DNA of 64,000 nucleotides from Acidimicrobiales bacterium (GCA_045807565.1 JBJMHD010000146.1:3085-67084); one strand, 5' to 3'. Counted from the stretch's first letter, positions 2 to 38,748 are shown. The notes: generated from the sequence alone by a model not told the origin. A program made the numbers and translations.

Positions 2-1285
2 GTGCACTTCTACGGCGCCAAGGAGGTGGACTACATCCTCCGGGCCACCGAGCCCAGGGTGGTCGTCACCGCCGACCGCTTCGGGCTCACCGACCACCTC
101 GCCACCTGGGACGCGCTGCTCGAGCAGCACGCGGGCCCGCGGTGGCTGGTGGTGGGCGACACGCCCGCGAACCAGCTGCCGAGCGGCGCGTTGGCCTTCG
201 CCGACACCTTGGACGCCGACCCGATCGAGGAGCCCGTCGCGGTCGACCCCGACGCCCCCGCGCTCATCGCGTTCACCTCCGGCACGACGAAGGACCCCAA
301 GGGCGTCATCCACTCCCATCGCACCATCACGTGCGAAGCCCGCCAGCTCGACCACATGTTCCCGAGGGGCGGACCGCCCACGATCACGGGGGCGCCGGTG
401 GGCCACTTCATCGGGATGCTCAACGCCTTCGTGGTGCCGCTGCTGCGCGACACCCCGGTGAACATGGTCGACGTGTGGGACCCCGGCGAGATCCTGCGGC
501 TCATGCTGGCCCACGACATCGGCGTTGGCGGCGGGGCCACCTTCTTCCTGACGAGCGTCCTCGACCACCCCGACCTCACCGACGAGCACCTCGCCCGCAT
601 GCCGTTCGCCGGCCTCGGCGGCTCGTCGGTGCCCGCAGCCGTCACCGAGCGGGCCGAGGGGCTGGGCATCAGGGCGTTCCGCTCCTACGGCAGCACCGAG
701 CACCCGTCGATCACCGGGTCGCTCATCGACGACGACGCCGCCAAGCGCCTCCACACCGATGGCAAGCCGCTGCCTGGGGTGGAGATCCGCCTCGACGAGC
801 ACGGCGAGATCTCCAGCCGCGGTCCCGACTGCTTCGTGGGGTACACCGACCAGGCGCTGACCGACTCCGTCTTCGACGCCGACGGCTGGTACCGCACGGG
901 CGACGTCGGCGTGCTGGATGCCGACGGCTATCTCACGATCACCGACCGCGTGAGCGACATCATCATCCGGGGCGGCGAGAACATCAGCGCCCAGGAGGTG
1001 GAGGAGCTCCTCCTCGGCGTGGACGGGGTGGCCGAGGTCGCCGTCGTCGCCGCTCCCGACGAGCGCATGGGCGAGCGCGCTGCGGCCTTCGTCCGCCTCC
1101 GCGAGGGTTCCCCAGCGCCGACCCTGGAGGACGTCCGGGCCCACCTCGCCGCGACCGGGCTGGCCAAGCAGAAGTGGCCCGAGTCGCTGCACGCCGTGGA
1201 AGGGGACCTCCCCCGCACCCCCTCGGGCAAGGTGCAGAAGTACCGGCTGCGCCAGAGCCTGCGCGACGGCACGCCCTGGAAATGA
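2..1285 (+). CDS. AMP-dependent acyl-CoA synthetase/ligase, 5' end cut by window edge
   Basis: The ORF is open at the window start. It has the AMP-binding motif FTSGTTKDPKGV, a GWYRTGD core and a C-terminal PSGKVQKY lysine loop. Confidence 0.85.
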   Translation: MHFYGAKEVDYILRATEPRVVVTADRFGLTDHLATWDALLEQHAGPRWLVVGDTPANQLPSGALAFADTLDADPIEEPVAVDPDAPALIAFTSGTTKDPKGVIHSHRTITCEARQLDHMFPRGGPPTITGAPVGHFIGMLNAFVVPLLRDTPVNMVDVWDPGEILRLMLAHDIGVGGGATFFLTSVLDHPDLTDEHLARMPFAGLGGSSVPAAVTERAEGLGIRAFRSYGSTEHPSITGSLIDDDAAKRLHTDGKPLPGVEIRLDEHGEISSRGPDCFVGYTDQALTDSVFDADGWYRTGDVGVLDADGYLTITDRVSDIIIRGGENISAQEVEELLLGVDGVAEVAVVAAPDERMGERAAAFVRLREGSPAPTLEDVRAHLAATGLAKQKWPESLHAVEGDLPRTPSGKVQKYRLRQSLRDGTPWK

Positions 1286-1292
1286 CGTTCTC
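1278..1292 (-). promoter_or_regulatory. GAGAA-N5-TTTCC box (GAGAACGTCATTTCC)
   Basis: It spans the stop of the acyl-CoA ligase gene, 44 nt upstream of the TauD operon start. Confidence 0.3.
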
Positions 1293-1335
1293 TACTCACT
1301 AGAGTCACACTTACACCTGTCACGGGAGGACGCCG

Positions 1336-2166
1336 TTGGCCGTCATCACCACCGAGAAGCTGGGCGACACCGTCGGCGCGGCGGTCCACGGCATCGACCG
1401 GGAGCAGCTGCTGCACGACGAGTCGCTGCCCGCGTGGACCCTCGACGCGCTCGAGGAGCACGGCGCGCTGGTGTTCCGCGACCTGCACCTCGACGACGAG
1501 GCGCAGGTGGTGTTCAGCCGCAAGCTCGGCAAGGTCGAGGTGTTCGGCAAGGGCGAGCACCCGGAGATCTTCCGGGTCACCCTGGACGCCGCCAAGAACC
1601 CCGCCGCGCAGTACCTGCGCGGCACCTTCGACTGGCACATCGACGGCTGCACCGACGACATCCCGATCATGGCCACGATGCTCAGCGCCCACGCCGTGGC
1701 CGAGCGCGGCGGCGAGACGGAGTTCGCCAGCTCCTACGCCGCCTACGAGATGCTCGACGACGACGAGAAGGCGACGCTCGAGGACCTGCGCGTGGTGCAC
1801 ACCATCGAGGCGTCGCAGCGGCTGTTCAACCCCGACCCCTCCGCGCAGGAGCTCGAGCACTGGCGGAAGCGCCCCGCGAAGGAGCACCCGCTGGTGTGGC
1901 GCCACCGCTCCGGCCGGAGGTCGCTCGTGCTGGGCGCGACCACCGACCACGTCGTCGGCATGGACCCCGAGGAGGGCCGGGCCCTCCTCGACGACCTGCT
2001 CCACCGGGCCACCACGCCTGACCGGGTCTACCGCCACGAGTGGCGGGTGGGCGACGTCGTGATCTGGGACAACCGAGGGGTGCTGCACCGCGCGCTCCCC
2101 TACGACCCCGCGTCGCCTCGCGACATGCACCGCACGACCTTCGCGGGCGACGAACCGATCCAGTGA
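1336..2166 (+). CDS. TauD/TfdA-family Fe(II)/2-oxoglutarate dioxygenase
   Basis: 276-aa ORF with a TTG start. It has an HxD iron motif in WHIDG, a GGETEFAS segment and a distal His in GVLHRA. Third-codon positions are G/C-rich. Confidence 0.8.
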   Translation: MAVITTEKLGDTVGAAVHGIDREQLLHDESLPAWTLDALEEHGALVFRDLHLDDEAQVVFSRKLGKVEVFGKGEHPEIFRVTLDAAKNPAAQYLRGTFDWHIDGCTDDIPIMATMLSAHAVAERGGETEFASSYAAYEMLDDDEKATLEDLRVVHTIEASQRLFNPDPSAQELEHWRKRPAKEHPLVWRHRSGRRSLVLGATTDHVVGMDPEEGRALLDDLLHRATTPDRVYRHEWRVGDVVIWDNRGVLHRALPYDPASPRDMHRTTFAGDEPIQ

Positions 2167-2930
2167 GCGCAGCGAGCGTGAGCGGACGCAGCGCCATCGT
2201 CACCGGCGGCGCGTCGGGCATCGGCCTCGCCATCAGCCAGCGGCTGGCCAGCGACGGCATCCCCGTCGGCGTGCTCGACCTGCACGGGGACGCCGCCGAG
2301 GAGGCCGCCGCCAAGATCAACGCGGCCGGTGGCACCGCGATGGCGCTCCCCGCTGACGTCACCGATCGCCCGAGCATCGACGCCGCCGTCGCCGCCCTCA
2401 CCGAGGCCCACGGTGCGCCCACGATCCTCGTGAACAACGCCGGGCTCGATGGCTTCTCCCGCTTCCTCGACATCACCCTCGAGCAGTGGAACCGCATCTT
2501 CGAGGTGAACCTCACCGGCACGTTCCACTGCTGCCAGGCGGTTGTGCCCGCGATGCTCGAGGCGGGCTGGGGGCGCATCGTGAACATCTCGTCGTCGAGC
2601 GCGCAGGGCGGTCAGCAGATGATGACCCACTACGCCTCGTCGAAGGCCGGCATGATCGGCTTCACCAAGTCGCTCGCCCTCGAGCTCGGTCCGAAGGGGA
2701 TCACGGTCAACACGATCCCGCCCGGGTTCATCGACACGCCCATGCTGCGGAAGGCGGAGGCGAAGGGGCTGCTCGGCAAGGGCGTGGAGTTCAACGAGGG
2801 CACGACCCCCGTGCGCCGCATCGGACGGCCCGAGGACATCGCCGCCACCTGCTCCTTCCTCGTGCGCGACGAGGCGAGCTACATCACCGGTCAGGTGATC
2901 GGCGTCAACGGCGGCCGGAACACCGGGTGA
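2163..2930 (+). CDS. SDR-family oxidoreductase (FabG-like)
   Basis: The GTG start overlaps the upstream TGA (GTGA). It has the TGGASGIG cofactor motif, NNAG and a catalytic YASSK. The long upstream extension in the ORF track is Arg/Pro-rich and not coding-like. Confidence 0.85.
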   Translation: MSAASVSGRSAIVTGGASGIGLAISQRLASDGIPVGVLDLHGDAAEEAAAKINAAGGTAMALPADVTDRPSIDAAVAALTEAHGAPTILVNNAGLDGFSRFLDITLEQWNRIFEVNLTGTFHCCQAVVPAMLEAGWGRIVNISSSSAQGGQQMMTHYASSKAGMIGFTKSLALELGPKGITVNTIPPGFIDTPMLRKAEAKGLLGKGVEFNEGTTPVRRIGRPEDIAATCSFLVRDEASYITGQVIGVNGGRNTG

Positions 2931-3520
2931 GCCCGCCGCGCATCCCGCCGTTGCCTCCTGCCGAGTGGCCCGAGGCCATGCAGGGCGCGCTCGCTGCGCT
3001 CCAGCCGCCGAACCCGCGCCACCCCCGTCCACCGCGCGATCCCGACCGTCCCAAGGGGCTCAACGTCCTCGGCACCCTCGCCCACCACCCCGACCTCACC
3101 ACCGCGTTCCACACGCTCACGGGGCACGTGCTCTTCGCATCCACGATCACGCCACGGCAGCGCGAGCTGCTCGTGCTGCGCGTCGCCCACCTGCGGCAGG
3201 CCGACTACGAGTGGACCCAGCACGTGCTGCTGGCCTCGGACGCCGGCATCACCGCCGAGGAGGTCGGCCGTGTCGCCGAGGGGCCCGACGCGGCCGGGTG
3301 GGCACCGCTCGAGGCGGCGCTCGTCCGGGCCGTCGACGAGCTCGTCGCCGACGCCCACGTCGCCGAGGCCACCTGGTCGGTGCTGGCCCAGCACCTGGAC
3401 ACCCACCAGCTCATGGACGTCGTGTTCACGGTCGGCACCTACGAGGTGCTCGCCATGGCGCTGCGCACCTTCGGGGTGGAGCTGGACGCCGACCTTGTCC
3501 GGAAACCGGCTTCTCCGTAG
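2927..3520 (+). CDS. carboxymuconolactone decarboxylase (AhpD-like) family protein
   Basis: The GTG start overlaps the upstream stop (GTGA). The helical CMD-like core runs RQRELLVLRVAHLRQADYEWTQH ... FTVGTYEVLAMAL. No CxxC motif is present. Confidence 0.65.
   Translation: MSPPRIPPLPPAEWPEAMQGALAALQPPNPRHPRPPRDPDRPKGLNVLGTLAHHPDLTTAFHTLTGHVLFASTITPRQRELLVLRVAHLRQADYEWTQHVLLASDAGITAEEVGRVAEGPDAAGWAPLEAALVRAVDELVADAHVAEATWSVLAQHLDTHQLMDVVFTVGTYEVLAMALRTFGVELDADLVRKPASP
3501..3515 (-). promoter_or_regulatory. GAGAA-N5-TTTCC box (GAGAAGCCGGTTTCC)
   Basis: It lies at the 3' end of the CMD gene, 55 nt upstream of the Rieske-1 ATG. An extended -10-like TGCTATCCT follows at 3531..3539. Confidence 0.3.
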
Positions 3521-3569
3521 ATGAGATCCATGCTATCCTCACACGTCGCTACCCACTGAAGAGGTCGAG

Positions 3570-4862
3570 ATGGCGCACTTCACCAAGCCCGAGGCGGGCA
3601 GCTGGACCGAGCAGTACCCCGACCTCGGCACCGGTCCCGTGTCCTACGAGGACTCCATCTCCCCCGCCTACTACGAGGTGGAGCGCGAGGCGATCTTCAA
3701 GCACTCCTGGCTGAACGTCGGCCGGGTGGAGCAGCTCCCTCGCAAGGGCGCCTACTTCACCAAGGAGATCGACGCCGCCCGCACGTCGGTGATCGTGGTG
3801 CGCGGCACCGACGGCGAGGTGCGCGCCTTCCACAACATCTGCCGCCACCGCGGCAACAAGCTGGTGTGGAACGACTACCCGGGCGAGGAGGTCGACGGCA
3901 CCTGCCGCCAGTTCACCTGCAAGTACCACGGGTGGCGCTACGACCTGGAGGGCGCCCTCACCTTCGTGCAGCAGGAGTCGGAGTTCTTCGACCTCGACAA
4001 GGCCGACTACGGGCTGGTGGCCGTGCAGTGCGAGGTGTGGGAGGGCTTCATCTTCGTCAACCTCGACCCGGACAACACCGAGTCGGCGGCGTCGTACCTC
4101 GGCGACCTGGGCGCCGGCCTCGCGGGGTACCCGTTCGACGAGATGACGGCGGTCTACAAGTACCGCGCCGACGTCGGGAGCAACTGGAAGCTCTTCATCG
4201 ACGCCTTCGCCGAGTTCTACCACGCACCTGTCCTGCACGCGAAGCAAGCCGTGGCCGACGAGTCGCACAAGCTCCAGGGGTACGGCTACGAGGCGCTCGC
4301 CTACGGCATCGACGGTCCCCACAGCATGGTGTCGTCGTGGGGCGGCATGTCCCCGCCCAAGGACCTCGGCATGGTGAAGCCCATCGAGCGGGTGCTGCGG
4401 AGCGGCCTGTTCGGCCCGTGGGACAAGCCCGACATCGGCATCGACGAGCTGCCACCCGGTCTCAACCCCGCGCGCCACAAGGCGTGGGGCACCGACTCGT
4501 TCGTGTTCTTCCCGAACTTCATGGTGCTCGTGTGGGAGCCGGGCTGGTACCTCACGTACCACTACTGGCCGACCGCCTACAACCGCCACACCTTCGAGGG
4601 GACGCTCTACTTCGTGCCGCCGAAGAACGCGACCGAGCGCCTGCGCCAGGAGCTCGCCGCGGTGACGTTCAAGGAGTACGCGCTGCAGGACGGCAACACG
4701 CTGGAGGCCACCCAGCGCAGCATCGAGTCGCGCGCCGTCACGGCCTTCCCCCTCAACGACCAGGAGATCCTCCTGCGCCACCTGCACAAGACGGCGCGGG
4801 ACAAGGTCGCCGCGTTCCAGCAGCGGAACGAGACCTCCGTCCAGATCTCCGCGGCATCCTGA
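3570..4862 (+). CDS. Rieske [2Fe-2S] non-heme iron oxygenase, alpha subunit (copy 1)
   Basis: The Rieske motif is CRHRG...CKYHGW, with a mononuclear iron region EFYHAPVLH. It is a clear paralog of 53487..54758. Confidence 0.85.
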   Translation: MAHFTKPEAGSWTEQYPDLGTGPVSYEDSISPAYYEVEREAIFKHSWLNVGRVEQLPRKGAYFTKEIDAARTSVIVVRGTDGEVRAFHNICRHRGNKLVWNDYPGEEVDGTCRQFTCKYHGWRYDLEGALTFVQQESEFFDLDKADYGLVAVQCEVWEGFIFVNLDPDNTESAASYLGDLGAGLAGYPFDEMTAVYKYRADVGSNWKLFIDAFAEFYHAPVLHAKQAVADESHKLQGYGYEALAYGIDGPHSMVSSWGGMSPPKDLGMVKPIERVLRSGLFGPWDKPDIGIDELPPGLNPARHKAWGTDSFVFFPNFMVLVWEPGWYLTYHYWPTAYNRHTFEGTLYFVPPKNATERLRQELAAVTFKEYALQDGNTLEATQRSIESRAVTAFPLNDQEILLRHLHKTARDKVAAFQQRNETSVQISAAS

Positions 4863-4873
4863 GGAGTCCCACC

Positions 4874-5200
4874 ATGGCCACCCTTCCCCCGGACTTCGCC
4901 GATCTCGAGCCGTTCGTCGACTGGTCGCTCGAGACGGAGGCCGAGCGCTACGCCAAGCGGCTCGCCAGCACCATGGACGAGCTGCAGGCGTTCTACGACG
5001 CGGCCTTCCCGCGCCTCGAAGACGCGATGGCCCACCTCGACGCCCTCGACCTCGGCGCGCTGCCCGAGGACGCCACCCGTCTGCTGTGGCTCTGCTACTC
5101 GCTCGTCAACGCATCGTTCCCCGTCGAGGTGTGGCGGCAGCCCCGTGTGCCCGACAGCGGCGCCGCGAGCATGGACCTGGTGGTGGAGCCGGCGGTCTGA
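4874..5200 (+). CDS. small helical protein of unknown function, partner of Rieske oxygenase (copy 1)
   Basis: The ATG lies 12 nt after the Rieske stop. The ORF is 108 aa with G/C-rich third positions. About 60 of ~110 hand-aligned residues are identical to 53158..53490, which sits in the same position behind the paralogous Rieske gene. Confidence 0.6.
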   Translation: MATLPPDFADLEPFVDWSLETEAERYAKRLASTMDELQAFYDAAFPRLEDAMAHLDALDLGALPEDATRLLWLCYSLVNASFPVEVWRQPRVPDSGAASMDLVVEPAV

Positions 5201-5219
5201 GAAGCGGGCGGCCAGCCGG

Positions 5220-5234
5220 GAGAACATCGTTCTC
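5220..5234. promoter_or_regulatory. perfect palindrome GAGAAC-ATC-GTTCTC, candidate TetR operator
   Basis: Read directly from the sequence. It lies 31 nt upstream of the TetR ATG at 5265. A TAGGGT -10-like hexamer sits at 5253..5258. Confidence 0.5.
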
Positions 5235-5264
5235 ACAGAAGTAGAAGCCAGGTAGGGTGGCCCC

Positions 5265-5963
5265 ATGACCTCCCAGGAGCCGGCGGACGGCACGACCGAA
5301 GCCGGCACCACCTGGCGAGATCTGGCCGTCGCCCGGTCCCTCGACCCGGCGCGGGCCCGAGCCGAGAAGCGCGTGCAGCGCTTCCTCGACGCCGCCGTCG
5401 AGCTGATGAGCAGCTCGGAGAACAAGGACTTCACCGTGCAGCAGGTGGTGGAGCGCTCGGGGCAGTCGCTCCGCAGCTTCTACCAGTACTTCGCCGGCAA
5501 GTACGAGCTCCTGCTCGCGCTGTTCGAGGAGTCGGTCCGATCCACCGCCGAGCACCTCGCCGACACGGTGGAGCCCATCGAGGATCCCCTGGACAAGCTC
5601 CAAGCCTTCCTCGTGGAGTACTACCGCATCTGCACGCCCACGCCGAAGGGCAAGCCCGGTCCCAAGCGAGCGGGGCCGAACCCCGCCGCCATCGCCGAGT
5701 TCGCGCAGCAGCTCCTCACCGAGCACCCCCGGGAGGCGGCCGAGGCCTTCACGCCCCTCGTCAGCCTGCTCGAGGGGATGCTCACCGATGCCGCCACCGC
5801 CGGCGTCCTGCGCTCCGACATCAACCACCGGCGCATCGCGGGGATCCTGCTGCAGGAGATCATGTTCAACGCGTTCGCGTCCACGATCAGCGGCACGTCC
5901 GTGCGCGAGGGCGGCGCCGACGACCTGTGGGACCTCGTGCTGCACGGCATCGCCGCCCGCTGA
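5265..5963 (+). CDS. TetR-family transcriptional regulator
   Basis: The N-terminal HTH is FTVQQVVERSGQSLRSFYQYFAGKYELLLALF. A perfect palindrome lies 31 nt upstream. Confidence 0.85.
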   Translation: MTSQEPADGTTEAGTTWRDLAVARSLDPARARAEKRVQRFLDAAVELMSSSENKDFTVQQVVERSGQSLRSFYQYFAGKYELLLALFEESVRSTAEHLADTVEPIEDPLDKLQAFLVEYYRICTPTPKGKPGPKRAGPNPAAIAEFAQQLLTEHPREAAEAFTPLVSLLEGMLTDAATAGVLRSDINHRRIAGILLQEIMFNAFASTISGTSVREGGADDLWDLVLHGIAAR

Positions 5964-5998
5964 GCGGGCGCGGTCCGCTAAGGTCACTCTCCTACGGC

Positions 5999-6013
5999 GA
6001 TAACGCCATTCTC
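5999..6013 (-). promoter_or_regulatory. GAGAA-N5-TTATC box (GAGAATGGCGTTATC)
   Basis: It lies in the 66-nt gap between the TetR gene and the LLM monooxygenase gene, immediately 5' of the SD. Confidence 0.3.
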
Positions 6014-6029
6014 AGGAGGAGCCGCCGTC

Positions 6030-7370
6030 GTGCCCAAGCGCCAGATGTCGCTCGTCGGCTTCATGCAGGCCGGCAGCACCACGGTGTACGCGGGCTCGTG
6101 GCGCCACCCAGCCACCGAGCACGGGTTCCTCGAGGCGAGCTACTACCAGAAGCTCGGCCGCACCCTCGAAGAGGGGTGCTTCGACATGATGTTCTTCGAC
6201 GACCGGCTCGCGATGCCGGGCGTCTACGGCGGGTCGGTCGCCGACGCCGTGCGCCTCGGGGCTCGTCCGGTGAAGCTCGACCTCAGCGTGGTGCTCGGCG
6301 TGCTGGCCGGGGCCACCGACCACATCGGCCTGGGCGCCACCTACTCCACCACCTACTACACGCCGTTCCACGTGGCCCGAACGTTCGCGACGCTCGACCA
6401 CCTCACCGGCGGGCGAGCCGCCTGGAACGTGGTCACGTCGGTGAACGACAGCGAGGCGCAGAACTTCGGCTTCACCGAGGTCATCCCCCACGACGCGCGC
6501 TACGACCGCGCCGACGAGTTCCTCGAGGCGACCACTGGCCTGTGGGACACGTGGGAGGACGACGCGCTCATCCTCGACCGCGAGAGCGGGACGTTCGCCG
6601 ATCCCACCAAGGTGCACGAGCTCGGCTACGCCGGGGAGTGGTTCGACGTGCGCGGGCCGCTCACCGTGCCCCGCTCGCCACAGGGCCGGCCGGTGCTGCT
6701 GCAGGCGGGCTCGTCCGGGCGCGGGCGCGACTTCGCCGGTCGCTGGGCGGAGCTCATCTTCACCGGCGATCCCGGCATCGAGGTCGCCCGGAACCACTAC
6801 AAGGACCAGAAGGATCGCATCGCCGAGCTCGGGCGCGACCCCGCGATGGTGAAGATGCTGCCGATGGCCTACACGGTCGTCGGCGAGTCGCAAGGCCACG
6901 CCGAGGAGCGCGAGCAGCTCTTCCTCAACGAGCTCGTGGACCCGAAGGCGTCGCTCACGCTGCTGTCGGAGCTCATGAACTACGACTTCTCCGGTCTCGA
7001 GCTCGACGCGCCGATCACCGACGAGCTCATCGAGTCGGCGTCGGGCATCCGCGGCCTGGTGCAGAACCTCCGGAAGCACATCGGCCACGACCTCACCCTC
7101 GCCGACCTGGCCGGCCACCGGGCCACGCTGCTGCAGGGCCCACGCTTCGTCGGCACCGGACGAGCGGTGGCCGACCAGATGGAGGAGTGGTTCGAGGGCG
7201 ATGCCTGCGACGGCTTCGTGATCGCGGCGACCCACTCCCCCGGCGCCTACGAGGACGTCGTGCGCCTCGTCGTGCCCGAGCTCCAGAAGCGCGGCGTCTT
7301 CCGAGACCGCTACACCGGCACCACCTTGCGCGACCACCTCGGGATCGAGCGACCCGCCTGCGGCTCGTGA
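6030..7370 (+). CDS. LLM-class flavin-dependent monooxygenase, NtaA/SnaA/DszA subfamily
   Basis: The GTG start has an AGGAGGA SD 9 nt upstream. The N-terminus MSLVGFMQAGSTTVYAGSWRH and the ~445 aa length are typical of the NtaA/DszA type. Confidence 0.85.
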   Translation: MPKRQMSLVGFMQAGSTTVYAGSWRHPATEHGFLEASYYQKLGRTLEEGCFDMMFFDDRLAMPGVYGGSVADAVRLGARPVKLDLSVVLGVLAGATDHIGLGATYSTTYYTPFHVARTFATLDHLTGGRAAWNVVTSVNDSEAQNFGFTEVIPHDARYDRADEFLEATTGLWDTWEDDALILDRESGTFADPTKVHELGYAGEWFDVRGPLTVPRSPQGRPVLLQAGSSGRGRDFAGRWAELIFTGDPGIEVARNHYKDQKDRIAELGRDPAMVKMLPMAYTVVGESQGHAEEREQLFLNELVDPKASLTLLSELMNYDFSGLELDAPITDELIESASGIRGLVQNLRKHIGHDLTLADLAGHRATLLQGPRFVGTGRAVADQMEEWFEGDACDGFVIAATHSPGAYEDVVRLVVPELQKRGVFRDRYTGTTLRDHLGIERPACGS

Positions 7371-8460: not shown

Positions 8461-8496
8461 TCGCAGATCGTATTATGTAGTACTCGACATCTGCGA
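8461..8496. promoter_or_regulatory. inverted repeat TCGCAGAT-N20-ATCTGCGA in the hsp20 upstream region
   Basis: The arms are a perfect 8 bp. The repeat lies in the only AT-rich stretch near hsp20. A TTGACG -35-like hexamer is at 8451..8456 and a TATTAT is inside the spacer. Confidence 0.35.
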
Positions 8497-9313: not shown

Positions 9314-9322
9314 CGGACGGAC

Positions 9323-23908: not shown

Positions 23909-23914
23909 CCCTCT

Positions 23915-26229: not shown

Positions 26230-26262
26230 CGTCCGCCCGCCGGCTGCGCTGAGGACGGCTCG

Positions 26263-27246: not shown

Positions 27247-27277
27247 GACGAGCGGGCCAGAGCGGGAGGAGGACGGG

Positions 27278-28261: not shown

Positions 28262-28274
28262 GAACACCGTTTCC
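28260..28274 (+). promoter_or_regulatory. GAGAA-N5-TTTCC box (GAGAACACCGTTTCC)
   Basis: It starts inside the TGA of the LLM gene, 26 nt upstream of the ACAD pair ATG at 28300. Confidence 0.3.
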
Positions 28275-28299
28275 GAAAAGCGAGTAGCCTCTTCTCACC

Positions 28300-30686: not shown

Positions 30687-30694
30687 GGGGGCAG

Positions 30695-31834: not shown

Positions 31835-32526
31835 CCCTCACCTCCGCTCGAGGTCCGCTCGGCCCGGAGCCTGCCGGCCGGTTCTCTCCCCCGATCGCGC
31901 CCGGCACCGTGTACATCGAACCCCACCCCCGGCGGGTGAACGCCCTCGTCGGCGGGGAGGCCGTGCTCGACACCGAGGCGGCGCTGCTCGTGCACCGTCC
32001 CGCGTGTCCCCCGTCGTACGCGTTCCCCCGTGCCGTCGTCGGTGACCTCCCCCACGACGCCGTGCCCGAGGCGCCCGGCTACGTGCAGGTGCCCTGGGAC
32101 GCCGTGGACCGGTGGGTCGAGGAGGGGCGGACGCTCGTGCACCACCCGCCCAACCCGTACCACCGGGTGGACTGCCGGCCGACCACGAGGCATCTGCGCG
32201 TGGAGGTGGCCGGCGCGGTGCTGGTCGACACCGACGAGACGATCATCCTGTTCGAGACGGCTCTCGAGCCCAAGCTCTACGCGCCACGATCCGCCGTCCG
32301 GACCGATCTCCTGCGGCGCTCGCCGACGTCCACGTACTGCAGCTACAAGGGCGAGGCCACCTACTGGTCCGCCGCCGTCGGCGACACCGTCGTCACGGAC
32401 GTGGCGTGGAGCTACGAGGACCCCTACCCCGAGAGCACCGCCATCGGGGGGTGGTTCAGCTTCGACCCAGCCCGAGCCGACGTGATCGCCGAGCTCCCCC
32501 AGCCGTCAACGTTGGCCGAGGGCTAG
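31831..32526 (+). CDS. DUF427-domain protein (apparently two tandem copies)
   Basis: The GTG overlaps the upstream stop (GTGA). The second copy has the hallmark TYCSYKGEATYWS ... DVAWSYEDPYPES. Confidence 0.7.
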   Translation: MTLTSARGPLGPEPAGRFSPPIAPGTVYIEPHPRRVNALVGGEAVLDTEAALLVHRPACPPSYAFPRAVVGDLPHDAVPEAPGYVQVPWDAVDRWVEEGRTLVHHPPNPYHRVDCRPTTRHLRVEVAGAVLVDTDETIILFETALEPKLYAPRSAVRTDLLRRSPTSTYCSYKGEATYWSAAVGDTVVTDVAWSYEDPYPESTAIGGWFSFDPARADVIAELPQPSTLAEG

Positions 32527-33800
32527 TAGACGCCGATCCCGGCCGCCTCGTTCTGCTGCTTCCACTCGGCCCGGGTCATGCGGGTGGTGTCCACCTGGCC
32601 CGCTTCGGCCCGCCTGCGCAGCGCGCCGACGGTGGCGTCCTGCCGCGCCGTGTGCTCGAACGGATCCCAGTCGAAGAACCGGCAGGCGTTCTCCCACGTG
32701 ATCTTGTGGATCTCCTCGTCGCTGCACCCCGCGCCCTGCAGCTCACCCCACGCGTGCTCGGGCGACTCGGGCCACGTCGTGTCGGTGTGGGGGTAGTCGC
32801 ACTCCCAGGCGATGATGTCGATGCCGATCCGGTCGCGGAGGGCGAGGCCGGACGGGTCGGTGATGTAGCAGGCGAGGATGTGGTCGCGGAACACCTCCGA
32901 GGGCAGCTTGCCGCCGAAGTCGTCGCCGCCGTGCAGCCAGGTCTGGTTCTGGACGTGGCGGTCGATGCGATCGAAGTAGAACGGGATCCAGCCGATCCCG
33001 CCCTCGGACAGGGCGACCCTCAGGTCGGGGAACTGGCGCAGCGTGGGACCGAACAGGAGGTCCTGCGCGGTGATGGCGCTGATCTGGCACGCCAGCACCA
33101 TGAGGTGGTCGATGGGCGCCTCCGGGGGTCGCTTGATGACCTCGAAGCCCGCACCGATGTGCAGGGAGAGCACCATCCCCTCGTCACAGATGGCCGCGAG
33201 CATCGGGTCCCAGTGGCCCGACAGGAAGCTCGGGAAGCCCTGCACGTGGGGCGTCTCGAGGAAGCTGATCGACCGACAGCCCTTCTTCCCGACCCGCCGG
33301 ATCTCCTCGACCGCCAGGTCGACGTCCCACATCGGGATGATGCCCTGGGCGATGAACCGGCCCGGGTAGCTGCCGCACCACTCGTCGATCGCCCAGTCGT
33401 TGTAGGCGCGCAGGGCGACCAGCGCGACCTCCTTGTCCCCCGCCTCGGTGAACGTGCGCGCGTTGAAGCCGGCCATCGTGGGGAAGTTCATCGAGCCGAG
33501 CACGCCGTTGGCGTCCATGTCGCGCACCCGCTGGTGCACGTCGAAGCAGCCGGGCCGCAGCTCCGAGTACGAGCCGGGGTTGAAGCCCCACTCCTCCCGG
33601 TTCCAGCCCACGGTCGCCGCCATGCCGAACGGCGTCGACGTCGCCTGGCCCTGGAAGTGCCACTCGTCGACGCCCGCGTCGTTGCGGACGACCTTGGGCA
33701 CGAGGTCGCGATACTTGTCCGGCACGTGGTTGTCGTACATGTCGGGCGGCTCGACCATGTGGTCGTCGATGCTCACCAGGATCATGTCGTCCATCTGCAT
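32523..33800 (-). CDS. amidohydrolase-2 family protein
   Basis: It has ILVSIDDHMVEPPDMY and a CDYPHTDTTWP segment. It is the last gene of the minus-strand ABC operon. Confidence 0.8.
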   Translation of the reverse strand: MQMDDMILVSIDDHMVEPPDMYDNHVPDKYRDLVPKVVRNDAGVDEWHFQGQATSTPFGMAATVGWNREEWGFNPGSYSELRPGCFDVHQRVRDMDANGVLGSMNFPTMAGFNARTFTEAGDKEVALVALRAYNDWAIDEWCGSYPGRFIAQGIIPMWDVDLAVEEIRRVGKKGCRSISFLETPHVQGFPSFLSGHWDPMLAAICDEGMVLSLHIGAGFEVIKRPPEAPIDHLMVLACQISAITAQDLLFGPTLRQFPDLRVALSEGGIGWIPFYFDRIDRHVQNQTWLHGGDDFGGKLPSEVFRDHILACYITDPSGLALRDRIGIDIIAWECDYPHTDTTWPESPEHAWGELQGAGCSDEEIHKITWENACRFFDWDPFEHTARQDATVGALRRRAEAGQVDTTRMTRAEWKQQNEAAGIGVY

Positions 33801-33824
33801 GGCTTGCTCCTCTGCGTTGCTCCG

Positions 33825-34520
33825 TCAGGGGGTCCCGGTGAGGTACGCCGCCTCGACCTTGTCGAGCTGGCCGGCCACCTCGGTGGCGGTGCCGCTCAGG
33901 ACGATGCGACCCCGCTCCATCACGTAGGCACGATCCGCGACCCCGAGCGCCCGGCGGACGTGCTGCTCCACCAGCAGCACGCCGACACCCTCCTGGTCGG
34001 CGGCGTCACGTACCGCTTGGAGCAGGTTCGTGACGATGATCGGCGCCAAGCCGAGCGACAGCTCATCGGCGAGGAGGACCTTCGGCGACCGGCCCAGGGC
34101 GCGGGCGAGCGACAGCATCTGCTGCTCTCCACCGGAGCACAGGCCCGCCCGACGGCTGAGGATCGCCTCCAGCGCCGGGAAGTGCTCGAAGGCTCGCGTG
34201 CGATCGACGCCCGCCAGCTTGAGGTTGTCGGCCACGGACATGTCCATGATCACCGAGCGCTCTTCGGTGACGTAGCCGAGCCCGTTGCGGCAGCGCACGT
34301 GCATCGGCGCGCGGGTCGCGTCGCCGAGGAAGCGGACCTCTCCCGCCATCGGCGCCAGCTCCCCGGCGAGCGTCAGGAGGGTGGTGGTCTTCCCAGCGCC
34401 GTTGGCGCCGAGCAGCGCGACCACCTCGCCGGCGTCGACGTGGAGGTCCACGTCGTGCACCACGGCGAGCTTGCCGTAGCCCGAGGAGAGGCCGGCCGCC
34501 TCGATGAGGGTGTCCGTCAC
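33825..34520 (-). CDS. branched-chain-amino-acid-type ABC transporter ATP-binding protein (LivF-like)
   Basis: The GTG overlaps the upstream stop (GTGA). It has Walker A GANGAGKTT, signature CSGGEQQML and Walker B LLADELSLGLAP. Confidence 0.85.
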   Translation of the reverse strand: MTDTLIEAAGLSSGYGKLAVVHDVDLHVDAGEVVALLGANGAGKTTTLLTLAGELAPMAGEVRFLGDATRAPMHVRCRNGLGYVTEERSVIMDMSVADNLKLAGVDRTRAFEHFPALEAILSRRAGLCSGGEQQMLSLARALGRSPKVLLADELSLGLAPIIVTNLLQAVRDAADQEGVGVLLVEQHVRRALGVADRAYVMERGRIVLSGTATEVAGQLDKVEAAYLTGTP

Positions 34521-37249
34521 GCGTGCACCTCGGCGGCCTCGTCGGCATGCCCGAGGTAGGCCTCGCGCACGGCCGGGTGCGACCGGATCTCCGTCGGCGT
34601 CCCGCTGGCGATCACCACGCCGAAGTCGATCACGACGATGCGATCGCAGGTGCTCATCACGAGCCCCACGTCGTGCTCCACGAGGAGCACGCCCATGTTC
34701 CGCTCGTCGGCCAGCCGCCGGATCAGGCGAGCCAGCTCCGCGCTCTCGTTCTCGTCGAGGCCGGCGGCGGGCTCGTCGAGCAGCACGACCGACGGGCCCG
34801 ACGCCACGGTCCTCGCGATGCCGACGAGCCGGCGCCGACCGTAGGGCAGCTCGTCGGGCGTGTCGTCCAGGTGCGCCTCCAGCTCGAACTCGCGGACGGC
34901 GGCCCCCGCGGTGGCCGGGAGGTCGTGCCGACCCGGCCCGATGAGATAGGTGACCCACGAGAGCCGCGAGGCGCCGACATCGCTCCCGGCACGGATGTTC
35001 TCCTCCACGCTGATGTCCTCGAAGAGCTCCAGCGACTGGAACGACCGCCGCAGCCCGAGCCGGGCACGCCGTGTCGCGTTCAGGCGTTCGATGCGCCGGC
35101 CGTCGAGCGTGATCGATCCGCGGCCCACCGGCACGAACCCGGTCACCGCGTCGATGAGGGTGGTCTTCCCCGCGCCGTTCGGTCCGATGAGCCCGACCAC
35201 CTCGCCGGGCCCGACCTCCAGCGATACGTCGTGCACGGCGACCACGGAGCCGAAGCGGACGGTGAGCCCCTCCACCGCGAGCGTCGCGCCGGTCACGGGC
35301 TCGACGGCGGCGGGCGGGAGCTCGGCGCGCGTGACCCGTGGCGACACGAGCCGCAGTCGCTCCCAGAGGCGCCGGTCGTGGGTGACGACGTCCGCGATGC
35401 CGTTCTGGTGCACGATCAGGATCACGAAGAGGAGCAGCGACCCGAGGATGAGGTCCCACTGCCCACCGAGGTTCACCCAGTCCTCCACGACGCGCGTGCC
35501 GAACCCCCCGATGGCGTTGGGGGCACCGAACACGGCGCCGAGCACGAAGCCGAGACCGCCGATCACGGCGTGACCGAGGCTGTTGATGGATGCGAACACG
35601 TTGAACTCGCCATAGGTGACGACCTGGCTGCGGAACCCGATGAGGATCCCCGCCACGGCAGCGAGCCCAGCCGACACCGCGAACGCGTACAGCTTCACAC
35701 CGAACACGGAGATCCCGAGGGAGGCGGCGGCCCGCTCGTTGGTGCGGACGGCGAGCAGCCGTCGGCCGGTCCGAGACCGGCGGAGGTTGGCGACGAGGAG
35801 GGCCAGGACGACGAAGCAGACCAGGCTGACGGCCGCCCACGCATGCGGGTGGTTGAAGGCGTCGACCCGCATGCCGAACAGCTCCACGCGGTCGATGCGC
35901 GTGCCGTTGTCGAGGATGTTCCCCAGGTAGTGCGGGTTGGCGAACACGACCTCGGACACGAGGAAGCCCAACCCGAGGGTGACGACGGCGAGGTTGACGC
36001 CGCGCGTGCGCAGCGCGGGCACGGCGAACACGAGGCCCACCAGGATCGTCAGCGCGATGCCCAGCACGACCGACACCTCGACGGGCAGCCCGGCGCGCAC
36101 CAACCGTGCCGCGATCAGGGCACCGATCCCGGCCAGCGCCCACTGGGCCAGCGAGATCTGGCCGGCGTAGCCGGTGAGGACGACGATCGACAGGATCATC
36201 ACGGCGGAGGCGAGGGTGGTGTAGCTCGCCCGCGCCCACGGGTCGTCCATCACACCGAAGAGCAGCACCAGGAACACGGCCGCCGCCAACACGACGGCGC
36301 GCGGGTTGATCTGGCCGGTGCCGAGGCGAGGCAGGCGTGCGGCCACGTGCGAGCGCAACGGGAGCCCGCGACCGCGGACGACGACCACCAGGAAGATCAC
36401 CAGGAAGGCCGAGGCGCGGTTGAGGCCGGTGATGAGGTCCTGGTGGAGGAGGTCGGTGAGGTCACCCCCGTAGAGCGTGGCCATCGCCTCGCCCACCCCG
36501 ATGATGAGACCGCCGACGAGCGTCCACGGGAACGAGTGGAAGGCACCGAGGAGCGCCGCGCCGAGACCGGCCACCGTGACCACGATGGTGAAGGTGGTGG
36601 CCGACAGCCCGGTGAGGGGCGCAGCCAGCACCGCGGCCAGGCCCGCGAGCATGCCGCCCATCGTCCAGGTGAGCACGGCAAGGCGGTCGGGCGACCACCC
36701 CAGCGTCTGCACGGCGCGCTCGTTCTGCGCGCTGGCGTTGATGGCCAGCCCGACGCGCGTGTACCGCGTCCACGCCCACAGCGCGAACGTGAGCACGAGC
36801 GTGATGCCGATCAGGTACAGCCGCTCCTCCTGCACCGTGTAGCCGCCCCAGTCGAAGACCCGGTTCGGGAGGTACGAGGCGACCCGGTGGTTGCTCGACC
36901 CCCATCGCTTGGCGATCACGGCCTGCAGCAGGCCGAGCAGCCCGATGGTGGCGATCACCCGGACGATCGCCGCCGCGCCGCGCAGCGAGCGGAGCACGAC
37001 CAGCTGGAACAGGAAGCCCACGGCGCCGGCGGCGAGCACCGCGAGCACGAGCGCCGGGACCAGCTGGAGGGGCTTTCCCTCGCCGTAGAGCTCGAGGAAC
37101 GCGAGGTAGGCGGCGAAGGTGCCGACCGCGCCCTGCGCGAAGTTCACGAGGCCCGACCCGCGGTAGATGAGCACCGCGCCTTGGGCGAAGAGGGCGTAGG
37201 TGGCTCCCGCGCCCAGCCCGATGATCAGGAACTGCAGGAACGAGTGCAC
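34517..37249 (-). CDS. fused LivH-like permease / LivM-like permease / LivG-like ATPase, single 910-aa polypeptide
   Basis: This is one uninterrupted frame. The N-terminus is LivH-like (FLQFLIIGLGAGATYALFAQG). The middle is a LivM-like polytopic region. The C-terminus is an NBD (GPNGAGKTT, LPYGRRRLVGIAR, LLDEPAAGLD). Confidence 0.8.
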   Translation of the reverse strand: MHSFLQFLIIGLGAGATYALFAQGAVLIYRGSGLVNFAQGAVGTFAAYLAFLELYGEGKPLQLVPALVLAVLAAGAVGFLFQLVVLRSLRGAAAIVRVIATIGLLGLLQAVIAKRWGSSNHRVASYLPNRVFDWGGYTVQEERLYLIGITLVLTFALWAWTRYTRVGLAINASAQNERAVQTLGWSPDRLAVLTWTMGGMLAGLAAVLAAPLTGLSATTFTIVVTVAGLGAALLGAFHSFPWTLVGGLIIGVGEAMATLYGGDLTDLLHQDLITGLNRASAFLVIFLVVVVRGRGLPLRSHVAARLPRLGTGQINPRAVVLAAAVFLVLLFGVMDDPWARASYTTLASAVMILSIVVLTGYAGQISLAQWALAGIGALIAARLVRAGLPVEVSVVLGIALTILVGLVFAVPALRTRGVNLAVVTLGLGFLVSEVVFANPHYLGNILDNGTRIDRVELFGMRVDAFNHPHAWAAVSLVCFVVLALLVANLRRSRTGRRLLAVRTNERAAASLGISVFGVKLYAFAVSAGLAAVAGILIGFRSQVVTYGEFNVFASINSLGHAVIGGLGFVLGAVFGAPNAIGGFGTRVVEDWVNLGGQWDLILGSLLLFVILIVHQNGIADVVTHDRRLWERLRLVSPRVTRAELPPAAVEPVTGATLAVEGLTVRFGSVVAVHDVSLEVGPGEVVGLIGPNGAGKTTLIDAVTGFVPVGRGSITLDGRRIERLNATRRARLGLRRSFQSLELFEDISVEENIRAGSDVGASRLSWVTYLIGPGRHDLPATAGAAVREFELEAHLDDTPDELPYGRRRLVGIARTVASGPSVVLLDEPAAGLDENESAELARLIRRLADERNMGVLLVEHDVGLVMSTCDRIVVIDFGVVIASGTPTEIRSHPAVREAYLGHADEAAEVHA

Positions 37250-37322
37250 GTCGTCAGCATCGTCGCAGGCGGGCCGGGGGGGCGCTCGTCGAGCACCTCA
37301 CCCCGGCCCATCGCTGCATCGC

Positions 37323-38660
37323 TCAGCAGGTCTCCGCAGGGGCTCCGAAGATGGAGCCGCACAGGACGTCGTCGAAGGACATCTCCCCGATCTGGACGAA
37401 GTTCCCGTCGAAGTCTCCCTTGGCGCTCGGATCCCACTTGTAGGTGGCCCAGTGGTTCATGCCGGCGCGCTGGAACAGGCCGGGGTGGTCGGTGTCGGGC
37501 GTCCAGCTCTCGTCGCCGAACATGCCGAGCATCGGGACGTCCTTGGCCGCTTCGATCATGGCCTTGAGCGACTGCCGGCTCAGCTCCGCAGGCTTCGCGT
37601 CGCGGATCATGTAGAGGAGCCCGTAGAGGCCGATCCACGACCGCATCGGGCTGGCCTTCAGGTTCTCGGGCTGGAGCGCATCCTCGCCTGACGCAGCCAG
37701 GTCGCTGCGCAGCGCCTCGTACACGGGCAGGTCCGCGGTGGCCGGCGGGAACGACCACGTGAGGGCCATCTGCTCGGCGAAGTCGCCCATGTCGGCCACG
37801 GCCGAGTGCGCGAAGGTGCCGAGGGTCCCGCCCACGGTGAGGTCCGTGCCGAGCTGCTGCGCGGCGTCGACGACCTGCAGGGCCTCCTGCTCGCCGAGGG
37901 CGAGCATCACGCCGGTGGCGCCCGCCTGCTCAGCGCCTTGGATGAACTGCGTGAAGTCTGTGGTGCCAGACGGGACCTCACCGTCGTACACGAAGGTCGC
38001 ACCGTCGTCGGCGTACACCGGCTCGAGCAGGCCCTTCATGGCGGCGGCCCCGCCGCCGACGCGGATGAGCCCGATCTCCTTGGCGTCGGCGTCGATGAGC
38101 GCCTGCGGCATGAGGAAGGTCGACCCGGTGCCGGACGCATCGAGGGGGTACGCGTTCTGGTCGCCCCAGTCGTTGTTCGTCACGTTGCCGGCCAACCTCG
38201 GGATCCCGAGCGACGCGAACTTCTGCGAGACCTCGAGCTGGGACTGCAGGCCCTGGTCGTTGATCGTGACCATCACGCCGGCCTTGTCCATGTCGTCCAC
38301 GCACGCCAGCGCCTGGTCGGCGTTGTTGTTCTCGTCGCAGTTGTGGACCTCGACGCACGAGCCGTTGGCGCCGCCTCGCTCGTTGAAGGCGTCGGCGGCC
38401 GCCTCGAGCGCCTTGGCCTGGTCGCCGAGCGAGATGACCGGCGTCTCGAAGGTGGTGATGAGACCGACGACCAGCGGGTCCTTCGCCTCGTCGCAGGGTC
38501 CGTCGTCCCAGAGGCCGATCCCCTCGTAGTCGATCTTCTCCTCGGGCGCGGCGCCGCCATCACCACCGGCGTCCCCGTCGTCGCTGTCGTCGGCGCACGC
38601 CGCCGCGGCCAGCGACAGGGCGACGAGCACGCCGAGCAGTCGTACCAAGGTCCTGGACAT
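37323..38660 (-). CDS. ABC transporter substrate-binding lipoprotein (LivK / Peripla_BP_6-like)
   Basis: The ATG at 38660 has a GAGGGGGGAA SD. It has the signal + lipobox LSLAAAAC and a type I periplasmic binding fold pattern. Confidence 0.8.
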   Translation of the reverse strand: MSRTLVRLLGVLVALSLAAAACADDSDDGDAGGDGGAAPEEKIDYEGIGLWDDGPCDEAKDPLVVGLITTFETPVISLGDQAKALEAAADAFNERGGANGSCVEVHNCDENNNADQALACVDDMDKAGVMVTINDQGLQSQLEVSQKFASLGIPRLAGNVTNNDWGDQNAYPLDASGTGSTFLMPQALIDADAKEIGLIRVGGGAAAMKGLLEPVYADDGATFVYDGEVPSGTTDFTQFIQGAEQAGATGVMLALGEQEALQVVDAAQQLGTDLTVGGTLGTFAHSAVADMGDFAEQMALTWSFPPATADLPVYEALRSDLAASGEDALQPENLKASPMRSWIGLYGLLYMIRDAKPAELSRQSLKAMIEAAKDVPMLGMFGDESWTPDTDHPGLFQRAGMNHWATYKWDPSAKGDFDGNFVQIGEMSFDDVLCGSIFGAPAETC

Positions 38661-38672
38661 CCGGTTCCCCCC

Positions 38673-38691
38673 TCGGGCTCGTCGAGCCCGA
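38673..38691 (-). promoter_or_regulatory. 8-bp-stem / 3-nt-loop GC-rich hairpin abutting the SD of the minus-strand SBP gene
   Basis: TCGGGCTC-GTC-GAGCCCGA was read directly from the sequence. On the minus-strand mRNA it ends immediately 5' of the GAGGGGGGAA SD. Confidence 0.3.
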
Positions 38692-38733
38692 TCGTCTGCA
38701 GCCCCGCGGTCGCGAAGCCCACGCTCACATTCG

Positions 38734-38748
38734 GAGAACCACATTATC
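38734..38748 (+). promoter_or_regulatory. GAGAA-N5-TTATC box (GAGAACCACATTATC)
   Basis: It lies in the 345-nt divergent region between the two ABC substrate-binding protein genes. Confidence 0.3.

Follow-up and report, generated by a model that had tools for sequence, protein, structure and literature searches.

The DNA analyzed here is a stretch of 64,000 nucleotides from an Acidimicrobiales bacterium (GCA_045807565.1, JBJMHD010000146.1:3085-67084), and this whole stretch is called the window hereafter. In the window, a 15-bp box, an imperfect palindrome of GAGAAC, lies directly in front of a set of catabolic operons and of a gene for a TetR-family regulator (5265-5963). We propose that the box is probably the operator of this regulator, which would be an autoregulated repressor of approximately nine operons spread over approximately 38 kb. 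Judging from the genes concerned, these operons appear to form an oxidative, CoA-dependent catabolic pathway, the substrate of which would be carboxylic or lipid-like and imported by an ATP-binding cassette (ABC) transporter. It should be mentioned that this is an ordinary kind of bacterial gene switch and that no new kind of regulation is involved.

Genes in the window, the G+C content of which is about 71%, were called from the G+C content at third codon positions (GC3). This gave about 60 genes, which occupy 93% of the window, and their functions were assigned by Pfam and NCBIfam. The original prediction had placed a strict form of the box (GAGAANNNNNTTHYC) at seven loci, just upstream of operon starts, and had estimated the chance expectation as well under one match. 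The strict pattern matches exactly those seven loci in the whole window. The number of matches is 8, because the palindrome at 5220-5234 is counted on both strands. In contrast, dinucleotide-preserving shuffles of the window gave a mean of 0.03 matches and never more than 1. With the GC3 gene calls, each strict site is found in a short gap or over the last codons of the upstream gene, directly 5′ of a gene start. Thus, these three claims were borne out. Because the pattern had been picked after seeing the data, matrix scoring and permuted-matrix controls were added. A symmetric weight matrix was made from the seven strict sites and every position of the window was scored. The distribution of the scores was bimodal: eight positions scored 13.9-22 bits, and the next best position scored 10.5 bits. 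The top eight are the seven strict sites and 11470-11484 (TACAATGACGTTCTC). Therefore, all seven strong sites of the original prediction stand, but their number has to be raised to eight. None of the eight lies within a gene body, although so much of the window is coding. As a control, sixty matrices were prepared by symmetric permutation of the columns, by which composition and palindromy are kept. These gave a mean of 0.23 matches at gene boundaries of the window (maximum, 2), as compared with 7 for the real matrix. Enumeration of exact-word dyads in the gaps of the window (palindromic 4-mers, and pairs of 4-mers with a spacer of 0-12 nt) did not make the box stand out; the box-derived dyads AGAA-N5-TTTC and GAAA-N6-TCTC tie near the top rank. 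The sites are too degenerate for exact words, and therefore we relied on the permuted-matrix controls and on prediction across species.

Conservation was analyzed in 80 loci (1.3 Mb), which were obtained from a scan with one genome per species and were chosen only for encoding a relative of the TetR (57-69% identity). These loci, numbered with the prefix L, come mostly from metagenome-assembled genomes (MAGs) of Acidimicrobiales, and also from MAGs of Microthrixaceae, from the cultured Aquihabitans sp. McL0605 (L070), from two Streptomyces and from MAGs of Frankiaceae. The matrix made from the window only found 228 sites of at least 13 bits, and these are distributed in 73 of the 80 loci. At a threshold of at least 14 bits there are 192 sites in the 80 loci, 153 of them at gene boundaries and 39 inside genes. 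The density of the box at this threshold is 0.59/kb at boundaries and 0.037/kb inside genes, a difference of approximately 16-fold. The permuted matrices gave a mean of 4.6 boundary matches in the same loci, so that the 153 real sites represent a more than 30-fold excess. Because the sequence context is unique in 189 of the 192 sites, the result is not an artefact of near-identical contigs.

These numbers bear on the possibility that the matches have no function and are a by-product of the A+T-richer composition of intergenic DNA, or a small dispersed repeat. The gaps of the window have a G+C content of 53-67%, as compared with 71% overall, which favors A/T-rich words, and the pattern was defined after the data had been seen. 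However, the permuted matrices fell far below the real matrix both in the window and in the loci. Moreover, the box is kept at orthologous positions while its flanks diverge, and the twelve gaps between 39 and 64 kb of the window contain no site above 9.4 bits. An origin in base composition or repeats is, in our judgment, extremely improbable. A dispersed repeat or miniature inverted-repeat transposable element was rejected because the flanks of the sites in the window have no mutual similarity.

The positions of the sites in the related loci follow the operon structure. The box is found upstream of 32 of 37 orthologues of the AMP-dependent CoA ligase (AMP-ligase), in the form GATAAT-N3-GTTCTC, and upstream of 18 of 19 TauD, 16 of 21 Rieske oxygenase and 16 of 24 amidohydrolase orthologues. 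In contrast, genes internal to operons are nearly free of the box: it precedes 0 of 20 orthologues of a 108-aa protein, 0 of 9 APH-like and 1 of 24 CMD orthologues, and overall 0-4 of 20-32. Thus, the positional conservation expected from the original prediction was observed. In alignments anchored on the box, the box carries 1.1-1.6 bits per column, as compared with 0.1-0.5 in the 25 nt upstream and further downstream. The CoA ligase is the most conserved target. In the window, the AMP-ligase gene is cut by the edge; judging from the box before it in relatives, the regulon continues upstream of the window. The ABC importer and the TetR gene are 32 kb apart. Therefore, orthologues of the importer's binding protein were fetched separately from metagenomes, independently of TetR. 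Of these, 8 of 21 carry a box at −93 to −158, and all eight are oriented as in the window, with GATAAT/GGAAAT...GTTCTC toward the gene. In a further locus with such an orthologue (L081), boxes of the TetR-locus type are present within a few kb of the transporter gene. The predicted union of the oxygenase island and the importer in one regulon is thereby supported.

In relatives, the box before AMP-ligase is situated in a divergent gap that is shared with a second operon. In L008 (1239-4838), the products of the opposite operon are a KshB-type reductase (FAD_binding_6/NAD_binding_1/Fer2), a SnoaL protein and a pair of acyl-CoA dehydrogenases (ACADs). In L070 (2372-4931), this operon contains the genes for the SnoaL protein and the ACAD pair, without a called reductase gene. 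The KshB-type reductase is likely the electron donor for the Rieske oxygenases; the matching region lies just outside the window. One locus, L046 from Streptomyces jeddahensis, encodes a 60%-identical TetR homologue in an unrelated context, and no GAGAAC box was found within 10 kb. The gap upstream of this TetR gene contains an A/T-rich element, CAATATACC...GGTTATATAAC (L046 9700-10700). The regulon may have been relocated or lost in this organism.

The consensus pooled from 189 unique sites of the window and the related loci is G-R-N-A-A-Y-N3-G-T-T-C-T-C, and there is no information outside these 15 bp. The half GTTCTC is nearly invariant, and the other half is looser (GATAAT, GGAAAC, GGAAAT or GAGAAC). 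When spacers of 0-8 nt were tested in the loci, the pair of half-sites occurred 145 times with 3 nt and 1-19 times with any other spacer. Furthermore, the boxes are found in both orientations relative to the downstream gene. The strict 3-nt spacer and the presence of both orientations fit a symmetric dimer. A 17-mer with a 5-nt spacer, GAGAAC/T-N5-GTTCTC/ATTCTC, was observed in three loci of Streptomyces paralogues, which are described below (L102 137-153, L103 2375-2391 and L105/L106 2438-2454). In L103, L105 and L106 it lies inside a called enoyl-CoA hydratase gene, and L102 has no annotation; the 17-mer may reflect coding constraint or a variant site.

The boxes are frequently paired. Over all loci, the distance from a strong box to a neighboring box of at least 6 bits is 22 bp in 37 pairs and 21 bp in 10 pairs, as compared with 0-5 pairs at each other distance from 8 to 60 bp. 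In the window, the pairs 3501/3523, 5977/5999, 11448/11470 and 28260/28282 are exactly 22 bp apart, and the 5977/5999 arrangement is repeated in L010 and L019. The partners at 5977 and 28282 are additional to the sites named in the original prediction. Although the matrix played no part in the choice of the second box in box-anchored alignments, this box is conserved (0.6-1.3 bits per column versus 0.3-0.5 in the 7-nt linker). Its consensus in orthologues is GAGA.C..TG.TATC for Rieske, TAGAGT....CTCT for TauD and G..AA.G for AMP-ligase. In TauD orthologues, the position of the degenerate box at 1300-1314 carries 1.05 bits per column versus 0.24-0.49 in the flanks, and the corresponding values for the box at 3523 in Rieske orthologues are 1.29 versus 0.3-0.4.

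With these data, the remaining claims of the original prediction can be placed. Among the weaker relatives of the box that it named, 3523 (rank 17) and 11448 (rank 35) are retained as 22-bp partners of strong boxes, and 11470 is itself a strong box (rank 8 of about 64,000 positions). The site at 38833 is ambiguous, with 10.2 bits, and that at 54839 is dropped (−1.9 bits, rank 1092). The regulon had been thought to extend over the whole window. The boxes support this for 1-38.7 kb, and 39-64 kb is free of the box.

The second boxes overlap conserved elements of the TGnTAnnnT type. These resemble the −10 elements of actinobacteria, and a TG precedes some of them; predicted −10 sequences for four promoters are listed in Table 1. 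If the −10 calls are right, the −35 region of three promoters (Rieske, TetR and ACAD) would lie under the strong box. At the TetR promoter, the right half of the palindrome at 5220 is situated 18 nt 5′ of a predicted −10 element, TAGGGT (5253-5258); the ATG at 5265 would imply a leaderless TetR mRNA. At the TauD promoter, the strong box ends 7 nt before the predicted −10 and would lie over the spacer and the −35 region. At the promoter of the NtaA/DmoA-type monooxygenase (LLM promoter), it would cover the transcript start, between the predicted −10 and the ribosome-binding site. In these arrangements the weak box appears to lie over the −10 element. This layout over predicted promoter elements is that of a repressor and not that of an activator.

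We also considered whether the box is itself a promoter element for an alternative sigma factor, with GTTCTC as −35 or GATAAT as −10. At the Rieske and TetR promoters, GTTCTC/CTTCTC is found 17-18 nt before a TANNNT hexamer, and the left half is GATAAT at the AMP-ligase and binding-protein sites. However, the box is built as a dyad, the spacer of which is strictly 3 nt, and both orientations toward the downstream gene are represented. Its distance to the predicted −10 is not constant: the −10 follows the box by 7 nt at TauD and by 17-18 nt at Rieske and TetR, but precedes it at the LLM monooxygenase (LLM446). Moreover, the box is repeated 22 bp away on the same promoters, unlike a single −35 or −10 element. 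A sigma-factor element is thus very unlikely. The box could also act at the RNA level, as a hairpin for processing or attenuation or as an ANTAR target. A hairpin with a stem of 6 bp and a loop of 3 nt could form from the perfect palindrome, several boxes are located between co-directional genes, and an ANTAR-domain protein is encoded at 9323-9655. In contrast to what a hairpin would require, most of the palindromes are imperfect with non-compensatory mismatches (for example, GGAAAT/GTTCTC), and the box occurs on either strand relative to transcription. Transcripts from the predicted −10 would not include several of the boxes, which are located 5′ of it. When the whole window was scanned against Rfam, no RNA family was obtained. 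We give an RNA signal hardly any credence.

The operator of a TetR-type protein is our preferred reading of the box, and the TetR encoded at 5265-5963, which the original prediction had named for binding tests, is the candidate for the protein that reads it. The best site in the window, the perfect palindrome, lies directly 5′ of its gene. At this locus, an N-terminal helix-turn-helix and an inverted repeat of about 15 bp in the regulator's own and adjacent target promoters are found together, as in TetR-type systems. This TetR has thousands of homologues, mostly metagenomic, and the named ones are from Acidimicrobiales. In 16 orthologues with 66-94% identity, the DNA-binding region at the N-terminus hardly varies. 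The predicted structure is all-helical (pLDDT 77), with matches to hundreds of solved TetR structures, among which FadR-type repressors with acyl-CoA are nearest (TM 0.6-0.67, identity 13-20%). In a sequence search of PDB, no close characterised relative was found: 18 sequences were obtained at E≤0.01, and the best, 2oer, matches only in the N-terminal domain.

The box follows this TetR into other gene contexts. In L037, L051 and L055, one box is found before the TetR gene and another in a divergent ACAD/AMP-ligase gap. Furthermore, when plasmids were searched by tblastn, only one distant relative was obtained (Streptomyces sp. N50, 40% identity). It resembles the TetR of 5265-5963 mostly in the DNA-binding domain (RAEQRVQRFLDAA...QSLRSFYQHF), and its ligand domain has diverged. 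This N50 paralogue has a perfect GAGAATATCATTCTC in its own upstream gap and GAGAGTACGGTTCTC before the next gene. Other Streptomyces paralogues have GAGAATAGCATTCTC and GAGAATAACATTCTC in the gap shared with a divergent operon for an ACAD pair and enoyl-CoA hydratase, and GAGAACTACATTCTC before a DapB-like gene. The boxes of the paralogues are located at L102 5879-5893, at L103 4894-4908 and 9256-9270, and at L105/L106 268-282 and 4894-4908. The family of approximately 40%-identical paralogues is widespread in Streptomyces, Actinomadura and Thermomonospora, with the DNA-binding signature and the box with its N3 spacer kept. A shared DNA-binding domain is thus accompanied by a shared box despite diverged ligand domains and targets, and this is the pattern expected if the domain reads the box.

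Several observations weigh against our proposal. The evidence for the association is all by co-location, and because the loci were picked via the TetR gene, box and regulator are statistically inseparable in them. A strong box (at least 13 bits) lies within 220 nt upstream of only 34 of 77 TetR orthologues, and one of at least 10 bits precedes 54 of 77, so that about 30% lack even a 10-bit box; some of the TetR genes are inside operons. Many of the loci are phylogenetically related, and the counts of orthologues are therefore not independent events. At three promoters of the window, conservation is judged from very few orthologues: none for the 11448/11470 pair, and one each for the boxes at 15037 and 28260. 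A sigma-70 consensus scan of 1200-6100 found no promoter, and the −10 and −35 calls were made by eye. Finally, the likeness to FadR is generic to the TetR fold and gives weak support to a CoA-thioester inducer. The co-location and the orthologues lacking a box leave room for a different transcription factor, encoded elsewhere, of which the TetR gene would merely be one target. However, the box accompanies TetR in unrelated contexts and accompanies the 40%-identical paralogue, which shares only the DNA-binding domain. The top site is a perfect palindrome before the TetR gene, and a length of 15 bp around a central base is classical for palindromic TetR operators. Moreover, the other regulators in the window, namely the second TetR and the MerR/ANTAR block, have repeats of their own and are poor candidates. 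We consider it unlikely that a different factor reads the box.

The second TetR (48444-49025) was rejected as the binder because it has its own distinct palindrome. The perfect 16-bp palindrome CTAGCCGATCGGCTAG is situated at 48378-48393, in the gap between 47230-48366 (minus strand) and the second TetR gene, and it occurs once, as compared with 0.01 expected. It is probably the operator of the second TetR and unrelated to the GAGAAC box. The MerR protein was rejected because the promoter gap of the HSP20-MerR-ANTAR block has its own inverted repeat. This block (8521-9655) interrupts the catabolic island and has no GAGAAC box. The repeat, TCGCAGAT-N20-ATCTGCGA at 8461-8496 in the 119-nt gap before the block, looks like a separate control site of the heat-shock type.

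On the basis of these sequence features, we propose the following mechanism. The TetR of 5265-5963 would bind as a homodimer to the 15-bp imperfect palindrome, with one half-site per monomer and with the geometry of TetR on tetO. The second, weaker box 21-22 bp away at most promoters corresponds to two helical turns, and two dimers may therefore be placed on the same face of the DNA. At the TauD, Rieske, TetR and ACAD promoters, the two dimers would cover the −35 and −10 elements. At the LLM promoter, they would cover the −10 element and the transcript start. In both cases, RNA polymerase would be blocked. In this way, the repressor would act on the TetR gene itself and on about eight other transcription units, all located between 1 and 38.7 kb. 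The putative targets are the CoA ligase, the TauD, Rieske, P450, flavin and LLM oxygenases, the ACAD pairs and the ABC importer. The repressor would be released by an inducer, for which a CoA thioester produced by the ligase of the pathway itself is the most plausible candidate. KstR-type regulators respond to CoA thioesters as inducers. A CoA-thioester inducer is our preferred guess, by analogy with KstR, KstR2, FadR, PaaR and MbdR.

The sites and genes are summarized in Table 1. Boxes precede six units read in one direction, namely TauD-SDR-CMD, Rieske alpha with the 108-aa protein, TetR, the NtaA/DmoA-type monooxygenase with the DapB-like protein, the ACAD pair with the thioesterase, and the importer with the amidohydrolase. 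Two further boxes lie between divergent units, Rieske2-SnoaL/flavin monooxygenase and cyclase/a 13-kb run from amidohydrolase to LLM.

Table 1. Boxes, predicted promoter elements and genes in the window (positions are counted from its first nucleotide).
Feature	Position	Strand	Score (bits)	Remarks
AMP-dependent CoA ligase	2-1285	+		Cut by the window edge; own promoter outside the window
Strong box GGAAATGACGTTCTC	1278-1292		19.8-20	Overlaps the AMP-ligase stop codon, 43 nt before TauD start 1336
Second, degenerate box TAGAGTCACACTTAC	1300-1314	+	0.9	22 bp downstream of 1278; holds predicted −10
Predicted −10, TauD promoter, TAGAGT	1300-1305			By eye and conservation
TauD-SDR-CMD, putative target operon	1336-3520	+		Pfam; predicted extent, from 11-nt and overlapping junctions
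Strong box GGAAACCGGCTTCTC	3501-3515		14.4	Last CMD codons; putative −35 position of Rieske promoter
Second box GAGATCCATGCTATC	3523-3537	+		Overlaps predicted extended −10 (TG 3531-3532, TATCCT 3534-3539)
Predicted −10, Rieske promoter, TGCTATCCT	3531-3539			By eye and conservation
Rieske oxygenase alpha subunit and 108-aa protein, putative target operon	3570-5200	+		Pfam; orthologues in 21 and 20 loci
Perfect palindrome GAGAACATCGTTCTC	5220-5234		~22	Top score; 30 nt before TetR start
TetR-family regulator, proposed box binder	5265-5963	+		Pfam TetR_N, residues 41-86
Weak box GCTAAGGTCACTCTC	5977-5991	+	8.1	Rank 27; 22 bp from 5999; holds predicted −10
Predicted −10, LLM promoter, TAAGGT	5979-5984			By eye and conservation
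Strong box GATAACGCCATTCTC	5999-6013		~20	Between TetR gene end and NtaA/DmoA-type monooxygenase
FMN monooxygenase (NtaA/DmoA family) and DapB-like dehydrogenase, putative target operon	6030-8401	+		Pfam/NCBIfam
Tandem pair GAGAACTATGCTAAC and TACAATGACGTTCTC	11448-11462 and 11470-11484		7.1 and 13.9	Divergent Rieske2-SnoaL (−)/flavin monooxygenase (+) gap
Strong box GAGAACCATATTTCC and weak partner	15037-15051 and 15015-15029		19.1 and 5.0	Divergent cyclase (−)/amidohydrolase (+) gap
Same-strand gene run	15068-28261	+		Amidohydrolase, SDR, AMP-ligase, two P450s, SDR, DapB-like, aldolase, ACAD, APH-like, ADH, LLM
Strong box GAGAACACCGTTTCC and partner GAGTAGCCTCTTCTC	28260-28274 and 28282-28296		18.3 and 9.2	Partner holds predicted −10, just before ATG 28300
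Predicted −10, ACAD promoter, TAGCCT	28285-28290			By eye and conservation
ACAD pair and thioesterase, putative target operon	28300-31834	+		Pfam
Liv-type ABC importer (binding protein, fused permease/ATPase, ATPase) and amidohydrolase, putative target operon	32523-38660	−		Pfam; predicted extent
Strong box GATAATGTGGTTCTC	38734-38748	−	20.5	Toward the binding-protein gene (start 38660)

Counterparts of the box at 5999 are present in L010, L045 and L068. For 15037, a box pair is found at the same place in L008, where the orthologue is 90% identical, and for 28260, a box pair is found at a 63%-identical ACAD orthologue in L034. The intergenic gaps of the 15068-28261 run are small and contain no strong box; the run is probably one or a few transcripts downstream of 15037. 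At the importer, GATAAT of the 38734 box may double as a −10 element. The start of the second binding-protein gene is ambiguous (38807, 39006, 39075 or 39489), so that the gap following the 38734 box may measure up to 400 nt. Within 38661-39074, one box of intermediate score is present, GGAAACGGGCTTTAC, which is the ambiguous site at 38833-38847 mentioned above. The second ABC locus (39-47 kb) is a possible further member of the regulon. An amidohydrolase gene at 51082-52323 (minus strand), 45 kb away from the TetR gene, is the last gene of a Rieske-SDR operon, the promoter gap of which has a best score of 7.9 bits. Its orthologues in other genomes are those that carry the box in 16 of 24 cases, and there they adjoin TetR and LLM monooxygenase genes. 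This amidohydrolase seems to have moved out of the regulon in the window.

For uncultured Acidimicrobiales, in which this 38-kb catabolic island is common, these results provide a map of the proposed regulon. The pathway that it defines belongs to abundant uncultured Actinomycetota. Co-regulation of the CoA ligase, oxygenases, ACAD pairs and importer would be the strongest clue that they serve a single substrate. The operator can be used to find genes of the pathway throughout a genome and in reporter screens for the inducer, and hence for the substrate. It may also provide a compact orthogonal repressor/operator pair for hosts of high G+C content. Because Aquihabitans sp. McL0605 is a cultured carrier with a complete genome, the prediction is directly testable.

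Finally, we compared the box with the operators of known systems. TetR on tetO and the acyl-CoA-responsive FadR types (Bacillus, Thermus and Sulfolobus) resemble the proposed system in that a 15-bp operator with a central base pair is bound by one dimer and operators are paired. However, the sequences of these operators are unrelated to the box, and the pairing at 21-22 bp from center to center is unlike that of tetO1/tetO2. BioQ, the actinobacterial TetR-type biotin regulator, recognizes TGAAC-N3-GTTCA. The core GAAC-N3-GTTC, the 3-nt spacer and, as proposed here, the TetR dimer are in common, whereas the outer positions differ (TGAAC versus GAGAAC). Unlike in the BioQ regulon, no biotin gene is present among the Pfam-annotated targets.

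KstR (Rv3574) is the mycobacterial TetR repressor of a large cholesterol and lipid catabolic regulon (PMC1995591) and has the motif TnnAACnnGTTnnA. The logic is alike: an autoregulated TetR and a short AAC...GTT palindrome before many operons of a large catabolic island, which in both cases contains Rieske oxygenases, P450s, ACAD pairs and CoA ligases. However, the spacer between AAC and GTT is 2 nt in KstR and strictly 3 nt here (145 sites with N3 and 3 sites with N2), a difference that the original prediction had correctly pointed out. The outer bases are T..A in KstR and G..C here. An orthologue of KstR was rejected, since no KstR chain is included among the 18 PDB sequences at E≤0.01.

The closest published motif, and a better match than that of KstR, is the site of SAV7471, a TetR-family protein of S. 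avermitilis, with identical half-sites, GAGAAC/GTTCTC. The original study of SAV7471 is reportedly that of Liu et al. (2013, J Bacteriol 195:4365). By its published description, SAV7471 plausibly belongs to the TetR family analyzed here, and the approximately 40%-identical paralogue family may be that of SAV7471. Among the homologues listed for three protein queries and among the cluster members, S. avermitilis was absent. In PMC10933834 (Table 2) and PMC11584518, the SAV7471 site is printed as GAGAACSWWCGTTCTC or GAGAAC-N3-CGTTCTC; its length is 16 bp and its spacer 4 nt. Thus, earlier work has described these half-sites for at least one Streptomyces TetR. In contrast to the printed spacer, the spacer is 3 nt in the window, in the 80 loci and in the Streptomyces paralogues. 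A 4-nt spacer was found 0 times in the window, twice in the 1.3 Mb of loci and in none of the Streptomyces paralogue loci. SAV7471 is described as a repressor of SAV7472-SAV7473, an adjacent flavoprotein operon, and of other, dispersed genes of acyl-CoA and CoA metabolism (PMC10933834, PMC11584518, PMC5640586). The Streptomyces paralogues adjoin a divergent ACAD-pair operon, and ACADs are flavoproteins; this resembles the SAV7471 context as described. Relative to the targets named in these papers, the window contains far more putative targets, among them oxygenases and a transporter.

We suggest tentatively, from the sequences compared, that the box serves as a common operator code for a broad subfamily of actinobacterial TetR proteins. 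This subfamily, with the near-invariant DNA-binding signature RAExRVQRFLDAA...QSLRSFYQYF, would extend from abundant uncultured soil Acidimicrobiia to Streptomyces and Actinomadura. Its members would use phased pairs at 21-22 bp to control CoA-dependent oxygenase pathways of several operons, and their ligand domains may have diverged to different CoA thioesters. The SAV7471 site would then be a variant that is longer by one base, or a misprint.

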